Assembly (NCBI GenBank): GCA_031856995.1
Contig: GCA_031856995.1_4356.1
Length of the DNA stretch: 43,888 nt
Source: a phage
Reading direction: 5' to 3' (one strand)
Positions 9,850 through 35,502 of this stretch are shown piece after piece. The first letter of the stretch is position 1. The number at the start of each line of letters is the position of its first letter. Both the position numbers and the translations under genes were made by a program. The notes beneath the pieces are model-generated. The model saw nothing but the letters and a program-made list of their open reading frames with translations, searched no databases and was not told the DNA's origin.

Positions 9850-11250
9850 TTAGCCGTCCACATTAAAATCAATACGAGTGATATATTTACTACCCCACGC
9901 AGAATCGGCCTGAGGGATAGTCGCGTAATCATCTACAGCCTGAACGTTTATCACGGAGCCGTCGGAATAGGTGATGTCGATACTTGTCGCGCCGTTCATT
10001 ACTACTTTTGCCGATGGCGCTGGGCGTGTTACAGGAGACGCCGACGTAATTATTGGTGATGTTGTATTTTGGTTTACCTCTACAGTAGCCGCGGATAATT
10101 TAATCCCTGAAACGCCATCCCCCGTAAAGGATCCGGTAACTCCGTCTGAATATATCCATGCGTCCATCCGTATTCTCATTGTTTTATCTTCTGTCGCGGT
10201 GATCGTCTCCGATATTCGGAACCACCCTCCGCCTACGTCGGTTACATCTGTACCGCCTGGGCCGGAATAAATGCTACCATCCCGCAAATCAACAACTGCC
10301 GAGCCTAATACTGTAGGAAGTTCTCGCACGTACATCCGTATGAAATTGTATCCGTTTGCTTTTGCGAAGAAACTAAAAGTAACCATGTCGCCAACACCAA
10401 CGCTAACATCTACAGTCTGGTTTATTAGGTGGTTACCGCTTGCGGCGGTAGCAGTTACGTCGTACGTGCCAGCGGCTGTTAAAACACCTGTTTCAGATAC
10501 TGATACACTCACCAAACCTTTGTTCCAGTTTGACGAAGAGAAATTGCTTGAATATAGGAATCTGTTAGTTACTGATACCTCTGGTGGCACGCGCCCGGCG
10601 GCAACCCCGTCAATAAACGTAAGAGGCCATTCATTGGCGGCGGACTGTACAAGATTACCATTGCGGTTGATGTAATAAACCTGTGGCCCCTCATACACAA
10701 TGCGGCTATCAAGAGTCGACGCCAGAAGGTTAATCGGCGGATACCCGGCGGGGCCTTCATTGCTCCAGATGCGAGGGAACGTCGTCTCATAGTTCGCGTA
10801 TATTTTCAGGAAACTACCCAGACAATCCCCGTAACAGCCGTACAAATCCGGAAGATTGTTAATCAGGCACTGGTTCTCAAGGTCCTGGAACGGCGATTTC
10901 TCGGCGGTTGCCGTGAAGGTAATTGTCCAGTTAATCCCGTCTTCGGTGGACTCAGCGATAGTGGACGTAATGGTTACCTGATAATCTTCGATGCCCATGC
11001 CGAAGTCGTGCGCCATCCAGAAACTTGACGCACCGCCGTCTACTTTTTCGAGGAACGACAGAAACGCCTGTCGCCCCATTGCGGATGTAATCAGGGTTAC
11101 GCTAACAGGGAACACGTCGTAATACGTGTCGCGCCCCTGACGTACACCGCCACCAGCTAAATCAACGCTCCAGATGTTGTTACGTCTGGTCATCGAGTAG
11201 CCTTTCGATACAATTGGCTTAAGGCTACGTGGGAAATATAAGTCGGTCAT
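9850..11250 (-). CDS. minor/distal tail protein
   Basis: 466 aa ORF immediately downstream of tape measure gene. Confidence 0.55.
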   Translation of the reverse strand: MTDLYFPRSLKPIVSKGYSMTRRNNIWSVDLAGGGVRQGRDTYYDVFPVSVTLITSAMGRQAFLSFLEKVDGGASSFWMAHDFGMGIEDYQVTITSTIAESTEDGINWTITFTATAEKSPFQDLENQCLINNLPDLYGCYGDCLGSFLKIYANYETTFPRIWSNEGPAGYPPINLLASTLDSRIVYEGPQVYYINRNGNLVQSAANEWPLTFIDGVAAGRVPPEVSVTNRFLYSSNFSSSNWNKGLVSVSVSETGVLTAAGTYDVTATAASGNHLINQTVDVSVGVGDMVTFSFFAKANGYNFIRMYVRELPTVLGSAVVDLRDGSIYSGPGGTDVTDVGGGWFRISETITATEDKTMRIRMDAWIYSDGVTGSFTGDGVSGIKLSAATVEVNQNTTSPIITSASPVTRPAPSAKVVMNGATSIDITYSDGSVINVQAVDDYATIPQADSAWGSKYITRIDFNVDG

Positions 11251-13538
11251 TATTTAAACCCCGGCGCGTTTCTTGTGGCCTTTCTGGCCTTGCTAATCTT
11301 ACTGTTGCTGTTCTGCAAAGATGCGGCAACTTGCTCCTCGATGATGATACGCAAACGGCCTTCATCATCTTGCTCGGTGGATACGTTGCCGATTTGAGAA
11401 CTCGTGTTGTTTACGATAGTAACATTAGACGGGCCGGAAGAAGACCCGTTTTGCCCCATAATTTCTTTCATCTGCTGTGCGGTGCGAACACGCGATGCCC
11501 CCGCTGGCATGATAACTTCCGGTTTACCGCGTTCTGCGATGGTGGAAGCCTGCCCTGCGGATAACTGTCCGCCCTGTTCACGCGCGGACCGGATAGCGGA
11601 AACCTGCGCCATACCTGCACCAACGGCAGCGGCAGCGGCTACAGGGGCCAGGAACGGGCCAACTACGGGGATAGCCGCCGTGGACTTGTACGCCTCGATA
11701 GCCGCGGTGTACGTGGCTATGGTGGCCTGTACGATAGCAAATGCCTTGTACGCGCCAGAAGCCTCACCCAACGCAGACCCGATGTTTGAGGCCATGTTAC
11801 CAAAGGCCGTTGCCGTTGCATCGGCACGCTTGGTTGCGTATTGCTCGTTGATGGCGTTAAGAGCGGCCTGATACTGCTTCTCGCTAATCAAACCCTGCTC
11901 GCGGTACTTATCCGCTACCGCCAGTTTCTGCTGTTCCTGGATGTCGAGAAGCTCAAGCTCAGTAGCGTTCTGGCCCATAATCTGAGCCATGAAGTCGTCA
12001 CCTTTCTGTTGCTTTTCCTGGGCTTCTTTCTGGCGTTTATCCAGTTCATCTTGTCGTTTTTGCCCTGCTTCTAGGACAATAGCCGTTTTTGCTTGCTCGT
12101 ATTCTTTCAGTGACAGCGCGCCCTGGCTGTAGAACTCTTTTGCCTTAGCCAGTTTCTGCTGTTCCTGCGCGTCGATAGCCTTTAACTCATCGTTGTTCTG
12201 GCGGGCCAAAGTGTCGAGGTAATCTTGCGCCTGATTCCGCAATTGTTCTGCTTTCTTGGCGGCGGCTTTTGCTGCTTTATCGTCGGCGTTTCCGGTGCTG
12301 CCAGTTCCACCCTTTTTATTAACAAGGCTGGCTAAGTCAATTTCTTGCTTCTTGCGCTCGTCGTACTGCTTGCGCTGTTCCTCAATTTCTTTCTTACGCT
12401 GCTTAGACCTGTCTGTAATGGCCTGTGATTCCGCCTCTGCGCGTTTTATGCTGGCGGCGTATGCGGCGTCGGCCTCTGCGGTCAGGTTTTTAAATGTGAG
12501 CGCCGCCGTTTTGCTCGGGTCAAACACGTCGGCAAGGGTCTGTCCTAACGCTACGGCGTAATCGTCAATGCGCTGGAACCACGCAATAACCTCGTGGAAT
12601 GTCTGCTGGATGTCGGGCAGCCACTCACGGATAGCATCCGGTATAGTACCCAGCGAGTCGGACATATCCGAGGATTTGTCCTCGGTGTCATATGCCAGGT
12701 CGTTCAAGGCGTCAGAAATAAACTTGAACGACTCATTGAACAGTGTCGTCCAGTCCTGGAGCGTGGCGGCTATCTCATTAGACGCTATAGCGTCGGTGAG
12801 CGCTGTAATAGCATCTTCCGCTGTTGCCGCTTGTTCGCCTACCGCGTCACCAAAACCGGATTGCGCTACCGCAAGAACAAGACCATCGAAGGAGTCGGCG
12901 AGGCTCGATAACTGACCGTCTAGCGTCTTAGAGCGTGTCTCCATCGCTCCGGCAAAATCGGTGTTGCCGATGTTTAACAGGTATTTCTGAATCTCTTCGG
13001 AGTTCTTTTTAACCGTGGTCGTTACGCCGCGGAACGTGAACGAAACTGTATCCGCCTGTTGCGACGACTTGATGCCGAACTCTTTTAGTCGCTCAAACTC
13101 AAAGGTACTGGCGTCGGCAACTGCCTCAATCATCTGATTAAGGTCTTTACCCATAGCAGCCGCGGTGTTGCCGTAGGAGATTAATGCCTCTTTGCCGGGG
13201 TTTAGCCCAAGAGCTACGAGTTTAGTGAAGCCCTCGACCGCCTGATTGAGGCCGTACGGGGTTTCTTTTGCGAATTGCTGCAGTACGCTGAAAGCCTTAG
13301 CCGCGTTCTCGGCGCTCCCGGTCATTGTGATGAGGCCGGAGTTCAGCTTATCGAAGTTGCGCTGGGAGTCCACCAGTGCACTGAACACCTGCTTAGCGGT
13401 TTCCAGGCTGACAACGGCGGCAGCCGCAGCGCCTGCGGCTTTAGTAAGCCCGTTCAGTTGTGATGTTGTTTTATCGACGCCGGTCGATGATACTCGTACT
13501 ATCAAGCTAGCGGTATCAGCCATGATTTCTACCTTCAA
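11250..13538 (-). CDS. tail tape measure protein
   Basis: 762 aa, Ala/Gln/Lys-rich coiled-coil composition, between tail chaperones and tail-tip genes. Confidence 0.85.
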   Translation of the reverse strand: MKVEIMADTASLIVRVSSTGVDKTTSQLNGLTKAAGAAAAAVVSLETAKQVFSALVDSQRNFDKLNSGLITMTGSAENAAKAFSVLQQFAKETPYGLNQAVEGFTKLVALGLNPGKEALISYGNTAAAMGKDLNQMIEAVADASTFEFERLKEFGIKSSQQADTVSFTFRGVTTTVKKNSEEIQKYLLNIGNTDFAGAMETRSKTLDGQLSSLADSFDGLVLAVAQSGFGDAVGEQAATAEDAITALTDAIASNEIAATLQDWTTLFNESFKFISDALNDLAYDTEDKSSDMSDSLGTIPDAIREWLPDIQQTFHEVIAWFQRIDDYAVALGQTLADVFDPSKTAALTFKNLTAEADAAYAASIKRAEAESQAITDRSKQRKKEIEEQRKQYDERKKQEIDLASLVNKKGGTGSTGNADDKAAKAAAKKAEQLRNQAQDYLDTLARQNNDELKAIDAQEQQKLAKAKEFYSQGALSLKEYEQAKTAIVLEAGQKRQDELDKRQKEAQEKQQKGDDFMAQIMGQNATELELLDIQEQQKLAVADKYREQGLISEKQYQAALNAINEQYATKRADATATAFGNMASNIGSALGEASGAYKAFAIVQATIATYTAAIEAYKSTAAIPVVGPFLAPVAAAAAVGAGMAQVSAIRSAREQGGQLSAGQASTIAERGKPEVIMPAGASRVRTAQQMKEIMGQNGSSSGPSNVTIVNNTSSQIGNVSTEQDDEGRLRIIIEEQVAASLQNSNSKISKARKATRNAPGFK

Positions 13539-13848
13539 AGATTGCTTCTAAGCCCATGATAATGTCTATCTCGAACAGGCTAAGCTGTTTTTGCGTAACA
13601 TCGAGATAGGCTTTCAGGTCTTGCCACGTAACGGATTCTCTTGCGAACAATACTACAGCGTCCTCGCGCACGTGTCGCGTAAACTTAATATCACAGTACG
13701 TCTCAAAGGTGGATATAAAAAGGGGCGGGCATTCTGGCCCACCCCTTCGCGCTGCACGTTTTTTCTTATCGATTACACCCATCGCGATAAGCGCCTGTTC
13801 GTGCCCGTCAGCTATAGAATCGAACTCTCTGATTTTATGCTTATCCAC
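13516..13848 (-). CDS. tail assembly chaperone (T-like partner), GTG start in ORF track
   Basis: 110 aa between G-like chaperone and tape measure; reading frame open upstream of the annotated GTG. Confidence 0.5.
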   Translation of the reverse strand: MDKHKIREFDSIADGHEQALIAMGVIDKKKRAARRGGPECPPLFISTFETYCDIKFTRHVREDAVVLFARESVTWQDLKAYLDVTQKQLSLFEIDIIMGLEAIFEGRNHG

Positions 13849-13880
13849 AAACTCGTAGGTGGCGAACCTGTACAGCGCGT

Positions 13881-14300
13881 CTACTTTTCCTGTAATGCTT
13901 TGCGCTCGGCGTTATGGAACGCCGCAACCTGGGTTCCAAGACCTTTGAACTGGTCGAGCAATTTGTTGAACGCTTCCTTAGAGAAAGGCTCGTCGTCAAA
14001 GCTCCAGCCGTTTACGACTTCTGCCGCAAGTTGCCTGTTGAGGTCTTCCGCCAGTTCGTTAACTGCCAGGTTATATTCAGTATAGTCGCCGGAGTCTTTG
14101 GCGGCTTTTTCCAGTTCTTCGAAACGTGCCAACCCTCTACGGTACGCAATAATGAACGCACGCCCCGCTTTAACGGCGGCATCCGCATCAGGGCTTACAA
14201 CGTTAAGCCACTCCCCTGAGTCTTCACCATTCGGCAGGAGAATCGGCATCTTCTTGCCCACCAGTGCTTTCTCTTCGAAATAAAAATCAGAAAGTTTCAT
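13881..14300 (-). CDS. tail assembly chaperone (G-like)
   Basis: 139 aa acidic protein between major tail protein region and tape measure. Confidence 0.6.
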   Translation of the reverse strand: MKLSDFYFEEKALVGKKMPILLPNGEDSGEWLNVVSPDADAAVKAGRAFIIAYRRGLARFEELEKAAKDSGDYTEYNLAVNELAEDLNRQLAAEVVNGWSFDDEPFSKEAFNKLLDQFKGLGTQVAAFHNAERKALQEK

Positions 14301-14407
14301 TCTTTAATCCTTTGGTTAAGAGGTTACAGGTTAAGGTTGACGCGCCAGACGGGAACCACCCGCTTTTCGTGTGCGACACTAGGCGCAAACTTATTCTAAC
14401 ACACTAC

Positions 14408-14436
14408 TTGCGTACCCCAATATAATAGGGTACTAT
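14408..14436 (+). promoter_or_regulatory. sigma70-like promoter with palindromic core, driving the + strand island
   Basis: TTGCGT-17 nt-TACTAT with ATAATAGGGTACTATTC core; same element as at 32985-33013 and 34873-34901. Confidence 0.6.
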
Positions 14437-14451
14437 TCACTTACACCAACA

Positions 14452-14658
14452 ATGAAGGGGTTTAAAATGTCCAGTTTACCAGTTTCCTTAATTCTGTTTG
14501 CACTGCTCGCTTATTTCGCGCCTTTCCTGGTTGCGTACTTCCGTAACCATAAAGCGAAGTTAGCGATATTCATGGCTAATCTGTTTCTTGGTTGGGTTCT
14601 GCTGCCGTGGGTATTTATTTTAATCTGGGCTTGCAACTCGAACGTGAAAGAGAAGTAG
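14452..14658 (+). CDS. small membrane protein (two TM helices); likely start at ATG 14467
   Basis: MSSLPVSLILFALLAYFAPFLVAYF...LFLGWVLLPWVFILIWA; GAAGGGG RBS before 14467. Confidence 0.55.
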   Translation: MKGFKMSSLPVSLILFALLAYFAPFLVAYFRNHKAKLAIFMANLFLGWVLLPWVFILIWACNSNVKEK

Positions 14659-14696
14659 GCTACTATAAGACAAATCCTAAACACGAGGAAATAGGC

Positions 14697-15851
14697 ATGG
14701 CCCAGAAGAAAATAACCGACGAACAGTTACAGGAAGAATTGAACGCTGGGATGAAGAATATCGACATTGCTCGTAAATACGGCATCTCAGACCGCGTTAT
14801 TCGTATCCGTAAAGCGAAACTAGCGAAGAAAGGCGTAGGCCACGGGCGTGACGTTAGCCACCTTGTGCCGGACGGCTACAAGATTAAGGGTACATCGTCT
14901 CTGGTTGATGAGTTAGGCAACACTAAACTGCAATGGGTTAAGACCGACACCGATGCGGAACGTCAGGTCGAGTTAATGAAAGCCGTTGTGGACGAGATGA
15001 AAAAAGATTTACCCAAGTATAAGCCAGTCACTTTGGCCAAAAATGGGACAGATGACGACTTATTAAATCTTTACACAATAACAGACCATCACATAGGGAT
15101 GTTGGCGTGTCAAGAAGAAGGCGGGGATGATTACGACACCACAATCGCGGAATCTCTCGCGGTTGACTGGTTCAACAGTGCGGTTTGTATGAGTCCACAG
15201 AGTGGTGAATGTATCATTAACTTCTTAGGGGACCAAATGCACTACGACGGCATGAAGGCAATGACCCCTATGAGCGGTCATATTCTTTCAGCGGATAGTC
15301 GCCTGTTTAAAATGATACGCACGGCCATTAAGGTTATCAAGCTGGCTGTCTCACTGTGCTTGCGAAAACACAAGAAGGTTAAACTTCTTATCTGTGAAGG
15401 TAACCACGACCTTAGTTCTTCTCTGTGGCTCCGGGAGATGTTCTACGAGGTATACACAAATGAGCCTCGCGTCGAGGTTAACCGGGAGGTGTCACCGTAT
15501 TATGCGTACAAGTTCGGGGATTGTATGATTTCAGCACATCACGGGCATTGTTCTAACTTTGCTAAGGTAGAGCAGGCTATAATCGGTAAGTACCGGGAGA
15601 TGTACGGGCGGTGTAAGTTCACATATGTCCATACGGGGCACCTCCATCACAGGGCGGTTAAAGAGACTAATCTGCTAATTGTTGAGCAACACCAGACATT
15701 AGCGGCTAAAGATGAGTATTCTAGTAAGGGCGGCTATTATTCAGGTAGAAGCGCAAATGTGATTACATACCACAAACGTTACGGGGAGGTGTCCCGCATA
15801 AGTATACCTGTCGAAATGCTGCGAGACATAAACCCAAAATCGACATACTAA
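14697..15851 (+). CDS. HTH-domain protein fused to calcineurin-like metallophosphoesterase
   Basis: N-terminal HTH-like IDIARKYGISDRVIRIRKAKL; phosphoesterase motifs TDHHIG, GDQMHYDG, EGNHD, AHHGH, GHLHH in canonical order; ATG 14697 after GAGGA (track ORF begins 14592). Confidence 0.7.
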   Translation: MAQKKITDEQLQEELNAGMKNIDIARKYGISDRVIRIRKAKLAKKGVGHGRDVSHLVPDGYKIKGTSSLVDELGNTKLQWVKTDTDAERQVELMKAVVDEMKKDLPKYKPVTLAKNGTDDDLLNLYTITDHHIGMLACQEEGGDDYDTTIAESLAVDWFNSAVCMSPQSGECIINFLGDQMHYDGMKAMTPMSGHILSADSRLFKMIRTAIKVIKLAVSLCLRKHKKVKLLICEGNHDLSSSLWLREMFYEVYTNEPRVEVNREVSPYYAYKFGDCMISAHHGHCSNFAKVEQAIIGKYREMYGRCKFTYVHTGHLHHRAVKETNLLIVEQHQTLAAKDEYSSKGGYYSGRSANVITYHKRYGEVSRISIPVEMLRDINPKSTY

Positions 15852-15866
15852 AATATAGGTGAAAGT

Positions 15867-16367
15867 ATGGATTGGAGTGAGGTTTTTAGCTACAAAAATG
15901 GCGTCCTATACTGGAAAGTCAAATCATGTCGCCGTAACGATGTGAATATAGGTGATGTGGCCGGGAGTTTGTGTAAAAACGGCTATTGGTATGTCATGTT
16001 TGGTAACCGTAAGTTTAAAAGGTCGAGGGTGGTGTATGAGATGTTCTCAGGTAAGATTCCAAAAGGATTTGCCATAGACCATACTAACCATGATACCTGT
16101 GACGACAGAATTGAAAACCTGTCATGCAAATCTAGAAGGGACAACATGGTTAACGTGAAAAGGCGCAAAGATAATACCTCTGGAGTTACGGGTGTGGCGC
16201 GGAAAGGAAAAACTAAGTGGAGAGCTTATGCCGTTGTCAACGGTAAGCAGATTAGTAAAACATTTGACAGAATAGAGGACGCTTTCGCTGAAAGAATTTA
16301 CATGTCTGTGGCTAATAGGTTTCACATAAATCATGGACTGACAACATTCAACAACGGTTATAAATAG
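15867..16367 (+). CDS. HNH endonuclease with AP2-like DNA-binding domain
   Basis: IDHTNHDTCDDRIENL HNH motif; SGVTGVARKGKTKWRAYAVVNGKQISKTFDRIEDA AP2-like segment; AT-rich. Confidence 0.75.
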   Translation: MDWSEVFSYKNGVLYWKVKSCRRNDVNIGDVAGSLCKNGYWYVMFGNRKFKRSRVVYEMFSGKIPKGFAIDHTNHDTCDDRIENLSCKSRRDNMVNVKRRKDNTSGVTGVARKGKTKWRAYAVVNGKQISKTFDRIEDAFAERIYMSVANRFHINHGLTTFNNGYK

Positions 16368-16376
16368 GGTGTAGAG

Positions 16377-16607
16377 ATGACTTCAAAATACAACCGCACA
16401 ATGACAAACACTCACGGCAGAACTATGACAGTAGACGTTTATGATGTGCTCCGCGCTTTCGACATCCGCGACCCGGCGTTGCAGCACGCATTGAAGAAGC
16501 TGTTGTGTATGGGCTTGCGCGGTCACAAAGACACAGGAACAGACTTAGCGGAAGCAATTGAAAGTCTGGAAAAGTTACGGGAGTATCGAAGTAACATTGA
16601 TGAGTAA
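16377..16607 (+). CDS. hypothetical protein
   Basis: 76 aa ORF, last gene of + island, followed by terminator. Confidence 0.5.
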   Translation: MTSKYNRTMTNTHGRTMTVDVYDVLRAFDIRDPALQHALKKLLCMGLRGHKDTGTDLAEAIESLEKLREYRSNIDE

Positions 16608-16610
16608 TAA

Positions 16611-16640
16611 AAAGGCCCCGAAAGGGGCCTTAGTTTTATG
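16611..16640. terminator. Bidirectional rho-independent terminator (end of + island, after major tail protein gene)
   Basis: GGCCCCGaaaGGGGCC hairpin with A-run upstream and T-run downstream. Confidence 0.75.
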
Positions 16641-17808
16641 CGTAGGTGATACGTTGAATTACGATAGACGACTGGTACTGGTTGCCGGTGGCCTGGCCTT
16701 CAATAGACTGAGTGATTGACTCAGGGCCACCAATCTCAGGTGTGACCGCCGTAAGCTCTGCACGTTTCAAACTGAAAGACATAGCCCCGTTTACCCCCGC
16801 CAGAATGGAGTTAATCTCTACCTGCTGCTCGTTGATAAACTTCTGAATCATCGCCATGTCATACAGCTTACCGGAGATGGAGAAGGTGTTAGCTGCACGG
16901 CTACGCTCCACAAACGCTACGTTAGTGTTACCAAGTTCGAACTGCGCGGACGCGCTGTTATCGTTGGTGATAGTCAGACTGTCGCAACGCAACGGCGTAG
17001 AGCCGTCGAACACGGAAACGTCAACCGAAGAGAACGGCTCATCACCAAAAGTAACAGATGAGAAGTTGGAACCGGTCGGCGGCGTAGTGAGAATCTCCTG
17101 ACTGCGACCGATGAATGGGAAGCTGCCAGTTACCATCGCGTTAACAGCCTGTTCGATGGTAAAACCAGAAACTTCCACGCCTTTGGTTAACGTGTACGCG
17201 TCAGTACCGCCGCACTGGCCTTTGTACCAGGTAAGGATAGAGAACGTCTTACACGCGTTACCGGTTTCCAACGTGTCGCCAGTTTTAGCCTTACTAGTTT
17301 TTGTCTCGGTGGTCAGGGTGTGTTGGATGCCCGCACCAGTAACAACCGTAGCCGTTACTGCAGTAACAATAAATGGTTTTGCGTTATCGCCTGTTAAATC
17401 GGTAAACGCAATCAGGTCGCCTACCCCAACTCCGTCAGTGATAAAACTGCCGGTAGCGCGTGTGAACGTCTTGCCCGCGGGTGCGACGGTAATCGATAGT
17501 CCTGACAGGGAAACGCCGGATTGCCACGTAGAGCCTAAAGCGCCCGCTAACCAGTCGTCCTGGCTTTTCGAGCTAAGCTCGATGGCGTATTCTCCACTAA
17601 CCTGTTTGTTACCGGTGCGGATGGATGTAGTTTCACGGCTGCCGTCCAGTTCGTTGGATGTCAGCGTGTCACGGGTAATCGCGGGAACGCCACCCGTGTT
17701 ACGCAACGGCGACCATACCGGGTTAGTCGGTGTTACGCCGGGGGTAGTTTCCGCCACATAGAATTGCGCGGTATTCGCGCCCTTAAAAGGAGTTGTAGCC
17801 ATATTCAC
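16636..17808 (-). CDS. major tail protein
   Basis: 390 aa Thr/Gly/Ser-rich protein followed by strong terminator; position upstream of chaperones and tape measure. Confidence 0.7.
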   Translation of the reverse strand: MNMATTPFKGANTAQFYVAETTPGVTPTNPVWSPLRNTGGVPAITRDTLTSNELDGSRETTSIRTGNKQVSGEYAIELSSKSQDDWLAGALGSTWQSGVSLSGLSITVAPAGKTFTRATGSFITDGVGVGDLIAFTDLTGDNAKPFIVTAVTATVVTGAGIQHTLTTETKTSKAKTGDTLETGNACKTFSILTWYKGQCGGTDAYTLTKGVEVSGFTIEQAVNAMVTGSFPFIGRSQEILTTPPTGSNFSSVTFGDEPFSSVDVSVFDGSTPLRCDSLTITNDNSASAQFELGNTNVAFVERSRAANTFSISGKLYDMAMIQKFINEQQVEINSILAGVNGAMSFSLKRAELTAVTPEIGGPESITQSIEGQATGNQYQSSIVIQRITYA

Positions 17809-18221
17809 AGCCTCTTGGTGAATGCAATAAAGTTAATTGACAATGGTCTTTTGGCCCATCCGTTTTCTACAATCAGCGGCCCCAGGCTAACCGATTGAAC
17901 CTCGGCGCAGATGTCGTTACGTGAAAATGACTTACCTGCTTTAAACGCCGTGTTAAGTAAGTCTGCCATTTTATTGATTGGCGCGCTACCTTTCACCGAT
18001 GCGTAGTTAATGTCAACCTGATAAATACCAGAGCGTTGTTCCGTGAAGAACAAATCCGCCTGTTCCGTATCCGCCAGCAACATGTAACTTGCCAGATACG
18101 GCGTATCGGTTGACGTCGGTGCGTCGATATTTTCAAGCGCGACTTTGATGCCGTTGGCGGTTCCGAAGGCTACCAGCGGCACATCAAACGCTTTTGTTAA
18201 GTCCTCAAAGTAGCCCATCAT
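17805..18221 (-). CDS. tail component (tail terminator/completion-like)
   Basis: 138 aa, coupled between head-tail joining genes and major tail gene. Confidence 0.5.
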   Translation of the reverse strand: MMGYFEDLTKAFDVPLVAFGTANGIKVALENIDAPTSTDTPYLASYMLLADTEQADLFFTEQRSGIYQVDINYASVKGSAPINKMADLLNTAFKAGKSFSRNDICAEVQSVSLGPLIVENGWAKRPLSINFIAFTKRL

Positions 18222-30454: not shown

Positions 30455-30490
30455 AGATAAAAAAAATCCCGGCTGGGTCAGGGCCGGGAT
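30455..30490 (-). terminator. Rho-independent terminator (first of tandem pair after lysis genes)
   Basis: ATCCCGGCtgggtcagGGCCGGGAT hairpin followed by T-run on - strand. Confidence 0.7.
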
Positions 30491-30562
30491 AAAACTGGAG
30501 AGCAGAGGGATGGAACAGGAGGTGATTTAAGTATCGTCTGATTAGTCTTAGGTGTCAATTGG

Positions 30563-33673: not shown

Positions 33674-33876
33674 AACTCAACCCCGTGGTGCTTAAGAAAA
33701 CTGTTTAACTTGTACTCACGGTACTGTGCTACCTCCTTAGCATGAGCCAAATGCCACGACTTCAACGGGGTGTACTTCGCCTTTTCCCAGCATTCAACAC
33801 CAAACTCGGCGGCGCGCAGACCGCCAATCAGACGGCGTAAGCGGAATTCGTTATACGGACTCATACCAACCTCCAC
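33670..33876 (-). CDS. hypothetical protein
   Basis: 68 aa track ORF. Confidence 0.5.
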   Translation of the reverse strand: MEVGMSPYNEFRLRRLIGGLRAAEFGVECWEKAKYTPLKSWHLAHAKEVAQYREYKLNSFLKHHGVEL

Positions 33877-33928
33877 AACGCGTGCACCACATAAACGGCG
33901 CTGATGATTAAAACAAACGGGTAATTAT

Positions 33929-34201
33929 TCATACCACCCCCATCTTCTCTTTAACGTGCACCCAGAACTCACCACAATACCAGCACCACATTAAATTCGG
34001 TGTCTCGCGAACCCAACCGTAATCCCCGCGTGCGCGAATAGGGATAACGCCTTTAATGAAATAATAACCTGTTCGCAGAAACTCAGGGTCGCGCGTCGCT
34101 GTGCGCCACATGTTATAAAACTGCTCCAGCCCGGCACCCCGACGCATGACCCGTACCTTATGAATGGTGTCAGAGACTTTTTCCAGTTCAGCGTTATTCA
34201 T
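33929..34201 (-). CDS. hypothetical protein
   Basis: 90 aa track ORF, coupled to upstream gene. Confidence 0.5.
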   Translation of the reverse strand: MNNAELEKVSDTIHKVRVMRRGAGLEQFYNMWRTATRDPEFLRTGYYFIKGVIPIRARGDYGWVRETPNLMWCWYCGEFWVHVKEKMGVV

Positions 34202-34419
34202 TTACGGCAACCTCCCTCAGAGTCGTCGGCACGAGCATCATGATTCGGTGCCGGTTCGAGTAAAGTGACCACACCACTTTCCTTCGTCAGAAGGATGTAA
34301 ACCGTCCGCAAATGTGCGTACTGTTTTAGCCAGGGACCGATTTCGGATTTACTGTTGAATTCTTTACTGGCTATGGTTTGTTTTGTCTCTTTCGATTTAA
34401 TCTCTAGCTTAATCATCAC
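34198..34419 (-). CDS. hypothetical protein
   Basis: 73 aa track ORF. Confidence 0.5.
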   Translation of the reverse strand: MMIKLEIKSKETKQTIASKEFNSKSEIGPWLKQYAHLRTVYILLTKESGVVTLLEPAPNHDARADDSEGGCRK

Positions 34420-34610
34420 TTCGCCCCTTTGAATTTAAAATTGTTGCCGATGAGTGTTAAATTATCTCTGAAAGCGTAACCATGTTTCTTTCGTACAAGA
34501 CCCCATACGTCTACAGCGGTACTATATTCATCCTCATTCTGGGTAACTATTACGTACTGTCCGCCGCGTTTTGTTTTAACCAACTGACCCTTCTTAAACA
34601 TAACCATCAC
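34416..34610 (-). CDS. hypothetical protein
   Basis: 64 aa track ORF. Confidence 0.5.
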   Translation of the reverse strand: MMVMFKKGQLVKTKRGGQYVIVTQNEDEYSTAVDVWGLVRKKHGYAFRDNLTLIGNNFKFKGAK

Positions 34611-34619
34611 TCCTCTGTC

Positions 34620-34838
34620 TTATTTAAAGTAGATAGCAAATTTCTTGTAACCCGCTGGCTCGTTACGAAGTCCTTTACCGTTAGCGAAACGTTGTACGTT
34701 AACAAAATCATTTTCATCCATTCCGTCGGTGTCGAACGTAAAGAAGTTGCGCTTGTTCCCGATAATTACGCGCTCTGAGATATCGATGCCGTAAACTTCT
34801 TTGATTGCGGAAACTACGCTTGCGGTCGCTTTGTTCAT
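34620..34838 (-). CDS. hypothetical protein (first - strand early gene)
   Basis: 72 aa ORF with AAGGAA RBS, directly downstream of promoter 34873-34901. Confidence 0.55.
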   Translation of the reverse strand: MNKATASVVSAIKEVYGIDISERVIIGNKRNFFTFDTDGMDENDFVNVQRFANGKGLRNEPAGYKKFAIYFK

Positions 34839-34872
34839 TTCTAAATTCCTTATGTCTCGTTTCGATAAGTGA

Positions 34873-34901
34873 ATAGTAACCTATTATGTTGGGGTGTGCA
34901 A
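34873..34901 (-). promoter_or_regulatory. sigma70-like promoter with palindromic core (leftward early promoter)
   Basis: On - strand TTGCAC-17 nt-TACTAT; core GAATAGTAACCTATT. Confidence 0.6.
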
Positions 34902-34973
34902 GAGAATAGTTACGTTGCCGTTGTGATTCTTCGGGGAGGGTTGTGCCTTTATTCTTATTACTTGGTAACTAAA

Positions 34974-34993
34974 GGGCAGGCTTAAGCCTGCCC
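34974..34993. other. Perfect stem-loop GGGCAGGCttaaGCCTGCCC in the divergent intergenic (origin-like) region
   Basis: 8-bp perfect inverted repeat with 4-nt loop. Confidence 0.6.
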
Positions 34994-35259
34994 AATAATC
35001 GTTACATTTTTACGGTTGCGAATCTACGGCACATTAAGAAACAGTAGATATTTCAGCGGGTTACTTCTTTAAATGAGATTTAGATACACTTATCCTTAAA
35101 CCCCAAGGCAAGCATCTCAGCTGTCTGGGAGGGGTTGACGAATCCCTCGGGGAGGGTTCGTCAACTCCGTAATATATACAAGTCCCAAAACCATTATACA
35201 AACATGTGTCAAGAACTTTCAATAACATTTTTGTAAAGATTAAATATTACAGAGATTGG

Positions 35260-35288
35260 TTGCTTTTACATTCCCGCTATCCTATACT
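35260..35288 (+). promoter_or_regulatory. sigma70-like rightward early promoter
   Basis: TTGCTT-17 nt-TATACT about 30 nt upstream of ATG 35320; preceded by AT-rich tract. Confidence 0.55.
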
Positions 35289-35319
35289 CAGTTTCACCAA
35301 ACAAACAGGAGATATAAAA

Positions 35320-35502
35320 ATGTCGCATTATATGACGCAGAATGAAGTAGCTGAACGTATCGGGGTGACACGTCAGACAATTAATAACTGGTTGCGCAGC
35401 GGCAAATTCCCTGACTGCTGTATTAAGGTTATGGGCCGCCGTTTACCGGGAACATTTGACCGTAATAAAGTCGAAGCATGGATTAAGGAGAACGTGAAAT
35501 GA
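35320..35502 (+). CDS. small HTH DNA-binding protein (AlpA/excisionase-like fold)
   Basis: MTQNEVAERIGVTRQTINNWLRSGKFP; ATG 35320 after AGGAGA (track ORF starts 35206). Confidence 0.6.
   Translation: MSHYMTQNEVAERIGVTRQTINNWLRSGKFPDCCIKVMGRRLPGTFDRNKVEAWIKENVK

Follow-up and report, generated by a model that had tools for sequence, protein, structure and literature searches.

An ancestral opposite-strand accessory cassette in the tail module of a Kagunavirus-like siphophage, with a probable homing-driven exchange of its metallophosphoesterase and HNH genes

Why do four non-structural genes run rightward through the leftward tail genes of a siphophage, and how did they come to be there? The question is raised by a stretch of 43,888 nucleotides (GenBank assembly GCA_031856995.1, contig GCA_031856995.1_4356.1; this whole stretch is called the window below), which represents a Kagunavirus-like siphophage genome (Guernseyvirinae), complete or nearly so. 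On its + strand, between the - strand genes for the tail tube and for the tail assembly chaperone, lie a superinfection immunity gene (Imm, 14467..14658, or 14452..14658 from an alternative start), a metallophosphoesterase gene (MPE, 14697..15851), an HNH endonuclease gene (15867..16367) and a gene for a protein of 76 amino acids (orf76, 16377..16607). An earlier note, made from the letters of the window, had described this opposite-strand block and the broken contiguity of tube, chaperone and tape measure genes, and had taken the block for recently acquired, moron-like cargo that the endonuclease possibly mobilised. The observation itself is confirmed by the list of open reading frames (ORFs) and by the Pfam matches of the flanking genes, with three corrections that concern the start codon of Imm, a supposed AP2 domain and the status of the promoter; the interpretation has to be changed. 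Probably, the block represents the accessory cassette that Guernseyvirinae normally carry in divergent orientation, here in a recombinant form in which the HNH gene drove homing of part of the MPE gene.

A megablast search with positions 13500-17900 returned 315 phage records, all of them Escherichia Kagunaviruses, Salmonella Jerseyviruses or relatives, and none of the 315 holds an identical cassette. The tail tube gene is matched in 495 phage records, the divergent intergenic region in 483 and the right half of the cassette in 467; of the about 495 records that share the tail tube gene, about 470-480, across two genera, have the locus filled, and in every relative examined it is filled on the same strand and provided with the same terminator. 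What varies is the content. Among the Kagunaviruses, K1ind2 carries Imm, MPE, a polynucleotide kinase (PNK) and an ATP-binding protein, Bas74 carries Imm, MPE and the 76-amino-acid ORF, and XY1 carries Imm, MPE, a chimeric ORF, PNK and an ATPase. Among the Jerseyviruses, Ent1 and buks have Imm, MPE (384 residues), HNH (166 residues), the 76-amino-acid ORF, a terminator, an antirepressor gene and a further terminator, and F118P13 and MET_P1_001_43 show the order of Ent1 without the HNH gene. With the synteny comparison run, the claim of a recent acquisition does not hold, and the cassette as a whole is ancestral to the Guernseyvirinae rather than newly gained by the window phage. The four-gene order of the window is already annotated in GenBank for Ent1 and about 115 other Jerseyviruses. 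In the papers searched, these genes figure in passing annotations only, and the cassette and its strand inversion are discussed nowhere.

The two closest known arrangements resemble the window in complementary parts. Genes gp24-gp21 of Salmonella phage vB_SenS-Ent1 (NC_019539) share with it the identical order of Imm, MPE, HNH, 76-residue protein and terminator at the same locus and on the same strand, and the HNH gene is 97% identical in its DNA and the catalytic part of MPE about 95%; Ent1 differs in having the extra antirepressor/Roi-like gene and second terminator before the tail tube gene, and identity to the window drops to 55-80% for Imm, the N-terminus of MPE, orf76 and all tail genes on either side. 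The K1G/K1ind2 and Bas74 variants, on the other hand, share the locus, Imm, the MPE N-terminus, the control region and the terminator at 92-95% identity, and Bas74 has orf76 as well, but they lack HNH and possess another allele of the MPE catalytic part, with about 48% amino-acid identity and DNA that does not align; in the K1G-type phages PNK and ATPase take the place of orf76.

The boundaries between both kinds of sequence can be drawn rather closely. In a sliding comparison the window is 91-97% identical to Ent1 over about 14950-16375, against a background of 55-75%, whereas its identity to Bas74 and K1ind2 is 92-95% as far as 15002 and from 16376 or 16604 onward, and the stretch between 15002 and 16376/16604 is not alignable with these two at the DNA level. 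A block of 1.4 kb at about 14980..16376 (+ strand), which comprises HNH and the catalytic domain of MPE and is common to Salmonella Jerseyviruses, has therefore been exchanged, while Imm, orf76 and the N-terminus of MPE share 92-94% identity with other Kagunaviruses, as the tail genes around them do. At third codon positions of the MPE gene, identity to Ent1 climbs from 0.36 (residues 1-50) through 0.53 (51-95), 0.78 (96-140) and 0.86 (141-240) to 0.875 (241 to the end), and that to Bas74 runs 0.84, 0.67, 0.29, 0.36 and 0.40 over the same intervals; the HNH gene, absent from Bas74, attains 0.93 with Ent1, and orf76 shows 0.56 with Ent1 and 0.82 with Bas74. Since the similarity of the block holds at synonymous sites, it reflects recent common descent and not selection. 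In the protein, residues 1-95 are 98% identical to Bas74, and from residue 141 onwards the sequence is 98-100% identical to Ent1 and about 48% to Bas74, in agreement with the pairwise alignments; by this pattern MPE is a chimera, Kagunavirus-type over residues 1-95 and Jerseyvirus-type over residues 96 (approximately) to 384. Identity to Ent1 falls leftward from the HNH gene and its right edge is abrupt, as expected for co-conversion. The direction was likely from Jerseyvirus to Kagunavirus, because HNH DNA is found in 155 Salmonella and 5 Escherichia records (162 phage records overall). Recent lateral transfer thus appears limited to the HNH gene and the adjacent ≈ 870 nucleotides of the MPE gene: of the proposed mobilisation by a homing endonuclease, this part stands, and the movement of the cassette as a whole does not.

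The HNH gene, a free-standing gene for 166 residues, matches Pfam HNH_3 (PF13392) with an E-value of 2e-15 and 56.6 bits against a gathering score of 24.8, phrog_99 (9e-49) and the PADLOC profile 'homing endonuclease' (1.4e-5). Its catalytic residues are intact (DH-x13-N-x8-N, residues 71-96). The earlier description as an HNH-AP2 enzyme is borne out for HNH_3; AP2 (PF00847) is not reported by Pfam at E ≤ 10, and the AP2-like part is a pattern seen by eye (SGVTGV...KWRAY...NGK...F...EDA). A second HNH copy does not occur in the window. Most Kagunaviruses and some otherwise syntenic Jerseyviruses lack the gene, and where present it occupies the 15-nucleotide spacer between the MPE stop codon and orf76. 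The empty site is preserved in MET_P1_001_43 (L008 3553-3567), in which the MPE stop is followed by 15 nucleotides, AAATAGGGGGTAGAG, and the ATG of orf76, so that the junction of this type reads ACATACTAAAAATAGGGGGTAGAGATGAC; the HNH ORF of the window, like that of Ent1, stands exactly where MET_P1_001_43 has this spacer, and the two junctions of the gene carry similar sequences resembling ribosome-binding sites, AATATAGGTGAAAGT-ATG and AAATAGGGTGTAGAG-ATG. A decayed site is found in Salmonella phage F118P13 (L007 3553-3621), where the first 35 and the last 10 nucleotides of HNH are left and meet at a short AACGG repeat. Presence is thus sporadic at one precise site among syntenic relatives, empty and decayed sites included, which is the comparative signature of a homing gene, and the occupied, empty and decayed states together cover its gain, decay and loss.

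Two further relatives connect the HNH gene with the 3' side of the MPE gene. In Escherichia phage XY1 the chimeric ORF (L003 4106-4669, annotated 'calcineurin-like phosphoesterase') consists of HNH codons 1-61 fused in frame to the last 126 codons of a K1G-type MPE, the fusion point being an EMFS microhomology; a Jerseyvirus-type MPE lies upstream and PNK and ATPase downstream, and XY1 consequently has an HNH gene that is dead and MPE sequence amounting to one and a third genes. Judged from its sequence, this chimera looks like a frozen intermediate of break repair within a recipient MPE gene. In a T1-like contig (L094, 5001-6698), an HNH_3 orthologue with 62% identity directly follows the MPE gene. 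The HNH lineage accordingly appears to travel with the 3' side of the MPE gene in any context, and the linkage in two contexts is what would be expected if the recognition site were in or next to the MPE gene. Free-standing homing genes of the T-even phages (seg and mob, such as segG and mobE) offer an analogy: they likewise are intergenic next to a conserved gene, sporadic and AT-richer, and their flanks show co-conversion that decays with distance, as seems to be the case around the HNH gene of the window. The T-even seg and mob enzymes, for which cleavage is established, belong to the GIY-YIG or another HNH subclass; the enzyme of the window differs in being of the HNH_3 type, with cleavage predicted from its sequence and with a transfer that would have crossed genus and host boundaries.

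In the explanation preferred here, the cassette is probably read rightward from a weak sigma-70-type promoter in the divergent control region of 150 bp between the chaperone ATG at 14300 and Imm, and its transcript probably ends at a GC-rich hairpin which would also end the converging tail tube transcript, so that the downstream tail genes would need read-through or a new start. Imm would block the entry of superinfecting DNA, and MPE together with the DUF3310-like product of orf76 would process nucleic-acid or nucleotide ends. In a mixed infection, HNH would cut alleles that lack it, in or next to the MPE gene, and repair would copy HNH and adjacent MPE sequence from the donor; the outcome would be a Jerseyvirus-type MPE catalytic domain with its HNH gene in a Kagunavirus backbone. 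Several points weigh against this picture: ordinary homologous recombination could also have moved the 1.4-kb block, the cleavage activity and the target site of HNH are predictions, and the AP2 DNA-binding domain is unconfirmed by Pfam at E ≤ 10. Moreover, the promoter is a weak consensus match with several alternatives, the assignment of MPE stops at the superfamily in view of its missing Pfam and PDB sequence matches, its structural model is moderately confident, and transcript data are limited to one coarse time course in one relative.

Among the competing explanations, the one that survives best holds the cassette to be mainly architectural: terminator and control region would split the tail operon for high expression of the tube and separate expression of the chaperone and tape measure genes and the more distal ones, and the proteins would be secondary. 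The tail genes concerned are all on the - strand, namely the tail tube gene (16636..17808; Pfam Phage_tube_2, 7e-38), with the tail terminator and completion genes beyond it, two tail assembly chaperone ORFs (13881..14300, Phage_TAC_4, and 13516..13848, Phage_TAC_18) and the tape measure gene (11250..13538). The two chaperone ORFs (13516-14300) lie in different frames, and the annotation of K1ind2 joins them as a frameshift product. In favor of an architectural role, a strong hairpin, AAGGCCCC-GAAA-GGGGCCTT (16612..16631), stands 4 nucleotides past the stop codons of both the tail tube gene and orf76; it has 8 base pairs, 6 of them GC, with -18.8 kcal/mol on the + and -15.5 kcal/mol on the - strand (z = -3.9 and -4.4), and is followed by T-runs in both orientations; in relatives with flanks at about 70% identity its conservation amounts to 97-100%. 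The depositors of Ent1 labelled it a bidirectional terminator, and the earlier placement of such a terminator at 16611-16640 agrees with all of this.

At the other end of the cassette, the overlapping divergent promoter candidates can be quoted for the same idea. The earlier note had given the cassette its own promoter at 14408-14436 (+ strand). The candidate (TTGCGT-N17-TACTAT) is of the sigma-70 type with 7 of 12 consensus matches, below the threshold of the scanner, yet its hexamers and spacing are kept in the Jerseyviruses (TTGCAT-N17-TATTAT) amid diverged sequence; it may be regarded as plausible, next to rival + strand candidates at 14398-14426 and 14440-14468. The last, proposed by the scanner, was set aside, as its transcript start would fall inside or after the start codon of Imm and as it is unconserved in the Jerseyviruses. 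On the - strand a putative promoter TTGGGG-N16-TAGAAT (14420..14393, 8 of 12 matches) overlaps the + strand candidate, and its -10 hexamer ends 6 nucleotides before a structured leader RNA; the Jerseyvirus counterpart is weak, with TATTCT at the aligned -10 position. Within 14393-14436 the best candidates of both strands are arranged back to back, each -35 hexamer within the spacer of the other, and RNA polymerase at one of them could exclude the other. A terminator-like site on the + strand at 14370-14387 proved no better than shuffled sequences (z = -0.5) and belongs to the structure of the - strand leader.

This conserved leader before the chaperone gene is the further argument for the architectural explanation. 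It occupies 14342..14386 on the - strand, outside the coordinates of the cassette, and reads GCGCCUAGUGUCGCACACGAAAAGCGGGUGGUUCCCGUCUGGCGC from 14386 to 14342, with an outer stem around two hairpins. It is nearly invariant between the two genera, with adjacent genes at 55-65% identity; RNAalifold yields 14 pairs, two of them compensatory (in hairpin 1), and its G-U pairs are valid on the - strand only. The best Rfam match in the whole window is RF02996 (int-alpA), which obtains 27.7 bits against a gathering score of 35.8 (E-value 0.005 in a local search, 0.089 over the whole window) and heads the sub-threshold matches at the corresponding position of K1ind2 (31.8 bits), Bas74 (27.8) and Ent1 (26.2); with 26-32 bits, the leader falls short of the score for membership. 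The cmscan alignment shows the architecture of RF02996, that is the outer stem, the two hairpins and the near-identical unpaired CUAG, CGAAAAG and CUGG, and RNAalifold gives the same architecture independently of it. An 18-base pattern of the phage element retrieved from IMG/VR both Guernseyvirinae and bona fide int-alpA copies of 55-69 bits. An ORF for a 37-residue 'hypothetical protein' of Bas74 (L001 2310-2423; window ORF 14264..14425) runs antisense to the leader and promoter region (14310-14425) and is probably no gene.

The canonical int-alpA copies (L012 12324-12391 on the - strand, L043 549-617 on the + strand, and those in L009, L011, L014, L016, L024, L027 and L032) permit a closer comparison. 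In L012 the motif begins 8 nucleotides after the integrase stop and ends 17 nucleotides before an ORF start, with alpA further downstream, and the ORFs downstream of the canonical copies are mutually unrelated. In these copies a site 12-17 nucleotides past the outer stem varies in step with the loop of hairpin 2 (loop/site: CCCUA/UAGGG, ACCUAC/GUAGGU, CUUCA/UGAAG, GUCCCUU/AAGGGAU, UCCUUCG/CGAGGGG), and a small hairpin presents the Shine-Dalgarno sequence. The covariation of loop and downstream box suggests a pseudoknot, and the canonical int-alpA may, on these sequences, act in cis as a pseudoknotted leader, in contrast to its Rfam listing as a trans-acting small RNA. In the phages the loop reads UGGUU and could pair with any of three or four AACC(A) repeats (14341-14305), with a site at +10 to +13 and the last repeat abutting the Shine-Dalgarno sequence. 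The shuffle test of the leader pseudoknot for single sequences is weak (p = 0.003-0.3), and the pairing finds support in its consistent position across different loop sequences. The leader is therefore like RF02996 in its stems and unpaired segments and in having a loop of hairpin 2 complementary to a site 10-17 nucleotides downstream, followed by a start codon preceded by a Shine-Dalgarno sequence in the loop of a small hairpin; it is unlike it in its shorter outer stem and loops, in its AACC repeat partner in place of an AGGG-type box, and in its place before a tail chaperone gene of a lytic phage instead of after an integrase gene. It is tentatively conceivable that 14342-14386 is a divergent int-alpA member, a cis-acting leader whose UGGUU loop would pair with the AACC repeats beside the Shine-Dalgarno sequence and which would thereby set how strongly the genes for chaperone, tape measure and distal tail are expressed once the terminator has cut the operon, and the leader is to be treated as a lead and not as a finding. 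Against the architectural explanation as such, a terminator and a leader would do the same with no need of 2 kb of genes, both Imm and MPE are kept throughout the subfamily, and the argument draws on sequence features; it is considered less likely than not.

Ordinary homologous or illegitimate recombination during co-infection, with HNH as a passive passenger or inactive, would also account for the exchanged block. Phage genomes have a mosaic build, the left breakpoint falls within a conserved part of MPE (residues 51-95, with 93-98% protein identity between the alleles), XY1 was joined via microhomology, and cleavage by HNH is deduced rather than observed. This explanation leaves several facts aside, however: identity peaks on HNH and decays toward the MPE side, presence, absence and decay of HNH are polymorphic at one precise site, the same HNH lineage is linked to MPE in an unrelated context, and the DH...N...N residues are intact. 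Homing of the HNH gene with part of MPE is for these reasons preferred, and recombination without it is considered rather unlikely.

The recent acquisition of the entire 2.2-kb cassette as a moron, possibly carried in by HNH, was suggested by features that are real in themselves, namely low GC content, opposite strand, an own terminator and a plausible promoter; moreover, MPE occurs in the replication module of T1-like phages, and the genes thus moved at some point. The cassette has 44.7% GC compared with 50.4% for the genome, within the lowest 3% of 2.2-kb windows, and the HNH gene, with 41.1% within the lowest 1.6% of 500-bp windows, is AT-richer than its surroundings, as had been noticed before. 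Yet the locus is filled in nearly all related records across both genera, Imm, the MPE N-terminus and orf76 are Kagunavirus-like, and only 14980-16376 is foreign. Presence of the cassette at this position in all related phages with matching composition had been named in advance as the result that would speak against an acquisition; the position is indeed largely shared, and the composition differs from the flanks. The analogy to the morons of lambdoid phages and HK97 extends to extra non-structural genes in a late operon with their own punctuation and deviant composition, the terminator and the low GC being clear and the promoter a conserved weak consensus match; it fails in that the block of the window is multigenic, on the opposite strand and as a whole not variably present, since only HNH, PNK/ATPase and the antirepressor vary. 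Whole-cassette acquisition is accordingly very improbable. Least credible of all, HNH might be a cofactor of packaging or morphogenesis like gp74 of HK97, as HNH proteins adjoining structural genes can reportedly assist terminases, but the gene is absent from most Kagunaviruses and some syntenic Jerseyviruses, is separated from the terminase genes by more than 10 kb and belongs to the homing-type HNH_3 families.

MPE itself, with 384 residues, starts at the ATG at 14697 and not at the TTG at 14592. It matches phrog_704 'DNA repair exonuclease' (1e-150) and contains motifs I-V of a binuclear metallophosphoesterase in the order used for the superfamily (DxH / GD / GNH[DE] / H / GHxH), namely D130xH, G178D, G235NHD, H281HGH and G314HLH, all of which are invariant across 16 homologues. 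Pfam reports no family even at E ≤ 10, Metallophos and Metallophos_2 included, although one close homologue has a precomputed match to PF12850, and a search of the PDB by sequence gave no match. The AlphaFold 2 (AF2) model, with a predicted local distance difference test (pLDDT) score of 67, retrieves Rv0805, Mre11, GpdQ, Vps29 and PolD DP1 in Foldseek with E-values of 1e-6 to 1e-4 and probability 1.0, the TM-scores being low (0.3-0.45). As modelled, the protein has the sandwich fold of the superfamily, and the predicted placement is no finer than that: its structural neighbors range from cyclic-nucleotide phosphodiesterases to Mre11-type nucleases, and an attempt to assign a sub-family was abandoned, with no PDB sequence match, nothing specific in Pfam or NCBIfam, nothing in PADLOC, and generic MPE relatives in the fold search. 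A fused helix-turn-helix (HTH) domain had been proposed earlier along with the metallophosphoesterase; the latter is borne out by motifs and fold, and for the former the model gives three helices at residues 8-44 with weak GerE/FixJ-like (LuxR/FixJ-type HTH) matches, E 0.005-0.05. By tblastn, HTH-MPE occurs in 2012 phage records, among them T1-like, Webervirus, Vibrio, Era103 and LIMEzero phages, and the protein database holds 744 homologues. In T1-like contigs of 47-48 kb, the same HTH-MPE is located among replication genes (helicase, primase, methylase), and in one of them (L093, 5001-6631) it is followed by a HAD-type polynucleotide kinase/phosphatase. As both the MPE-PNK and the MPE-HNH pairs occur in T1-like replication modules, they are older than their position in the tail module, and an older origin of the cassette genes by relocation is plausible.

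The 76-amino-acid protein gene announced earlier is present as orf76; its product matches phrog_2452 and has 35 homologues, all of them small, stand-alone and domain-free. The AF2 model (pLDDT 88) consists of a β-hairpin and three helices, and a fold search against the PDB gave no match; solved structures matching HNH or orf76 were not found. In BFVD the model matches small stand-alone phage proteins as well as domains at the ends of phage proteins that bear the names 'nucleotide kinase', 'phosphodiesterase' or 'DNA ligase'; weaker matches are to SaV-like/DUF3310 proteins, so that orf76 is described here as a small protein of DUF3310/SaV-like fold. The PHROG matches of orf76 to the C-terminal parts of long profiles had raised the idea of a remnant of the K1G-type ATPase, which was dropped, as orf76 shows no similarity to gp19 of K1ind2 or to the 58-residue ORF of XY1 and as its 35 homologues all stand alone; the matches are explained by a shared DUF3310-like domain, which in other phages forms part of kinases, phosphodiesterases and ligases. 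Taken together, the right half of the cassette (MPE and orf76, with PNK and ATPase in relatives) reads as a small, plastic module for the processing of nucleotide or nucleic-acid ends, whose service in end healing or counter-defence is put forward with low confidence.

The product of the first gene had been described as a small membrane protein with two transmembrane segments, and it indeed contains two hydrophobic stretches (19-residue Kyte-Doolittle windows above 1.6) at residues 4-31 and 36-63 of the 68-residue form. It matches Pfam Imm_superinfect (PF14373; 9.3e-13, 48.3 bits against a cut-off of 27.9 bits) and phrog_1039 'immunity to superinfection' (5e-23), and is annotated as Imm in K1ind2, Bas74 and Ent1. 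A protein of 63 residues is more likely than one of 68, as a Shine-Dalgarno sequence (aagggg) precedes the ATG at 14467 only, not that at 14452, in agreement with the RefSeq annotation of K1ind2. By family membership, Imm should be an inner-membrane protein of the T4 Imm family that blocks DNA entry of superinfecting phages. It resembles T4 Imm as a small two-helix membrane protein above the family cut-off, and differs in its 63 residues, strong divergence, siphovirus setting and merely predicted role in exclusion. For a relative, the Kagunavirus K1B4, an RNA-seq time course recorded transcription of the Imm gene during infection and placed it in the late class, which attests + strand expression there, with coarse time classes (PMC12645636).

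Elsewhere in the window, the region 33.8-35.5 kb (33800-35500) is the only one below the cassette in GC content (39-44%); it has many short ORFs and is presumably an early or host-takeover region. A strong terminator-like hairpin at 30459-30504 on the - strand, UCCCGGCCC...GCCGGGA followed by U8, gave a weak Rfam match (25 bits, gathering score 50 bits) with a family described as 'toxic sRNA', and is most likely just an intrinsic terminator.

As a recombinant form of a known and already annotated arrangement, the cassette is of low newness, and the int-alpA-like leader is the sole element here that could open a new question. If the view of the leader is correct, int-alpA, listed in Rfam as a small RNA of unknown function, would gain its first concrete cis-regulatory context, and the tail operon of a lytic phage would be linked to the leaders of cargo genes in integrative elements. 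For annotation, the block should be labelled a conserved Guernseyvirinae accessory cassette (Imm, HTH-MPE, HNH, DUF3310-like) and not a novel island. For therapy work, Imm, MPE, PNK and ATPase are candidate traits of superinfection exclusion or counter-defence that differ between near-identical phages. For phage biology, the window provides what is probably a natural example of a free-standing homing endonuclease that carried part of its neighbor gene from a Salmonella Jerseyvirus into an E. coli Kagunavirus, and the occupied, empty, decayed and chimeric states in sequenced relatives make its target and the co-conversion gradient directly testable.

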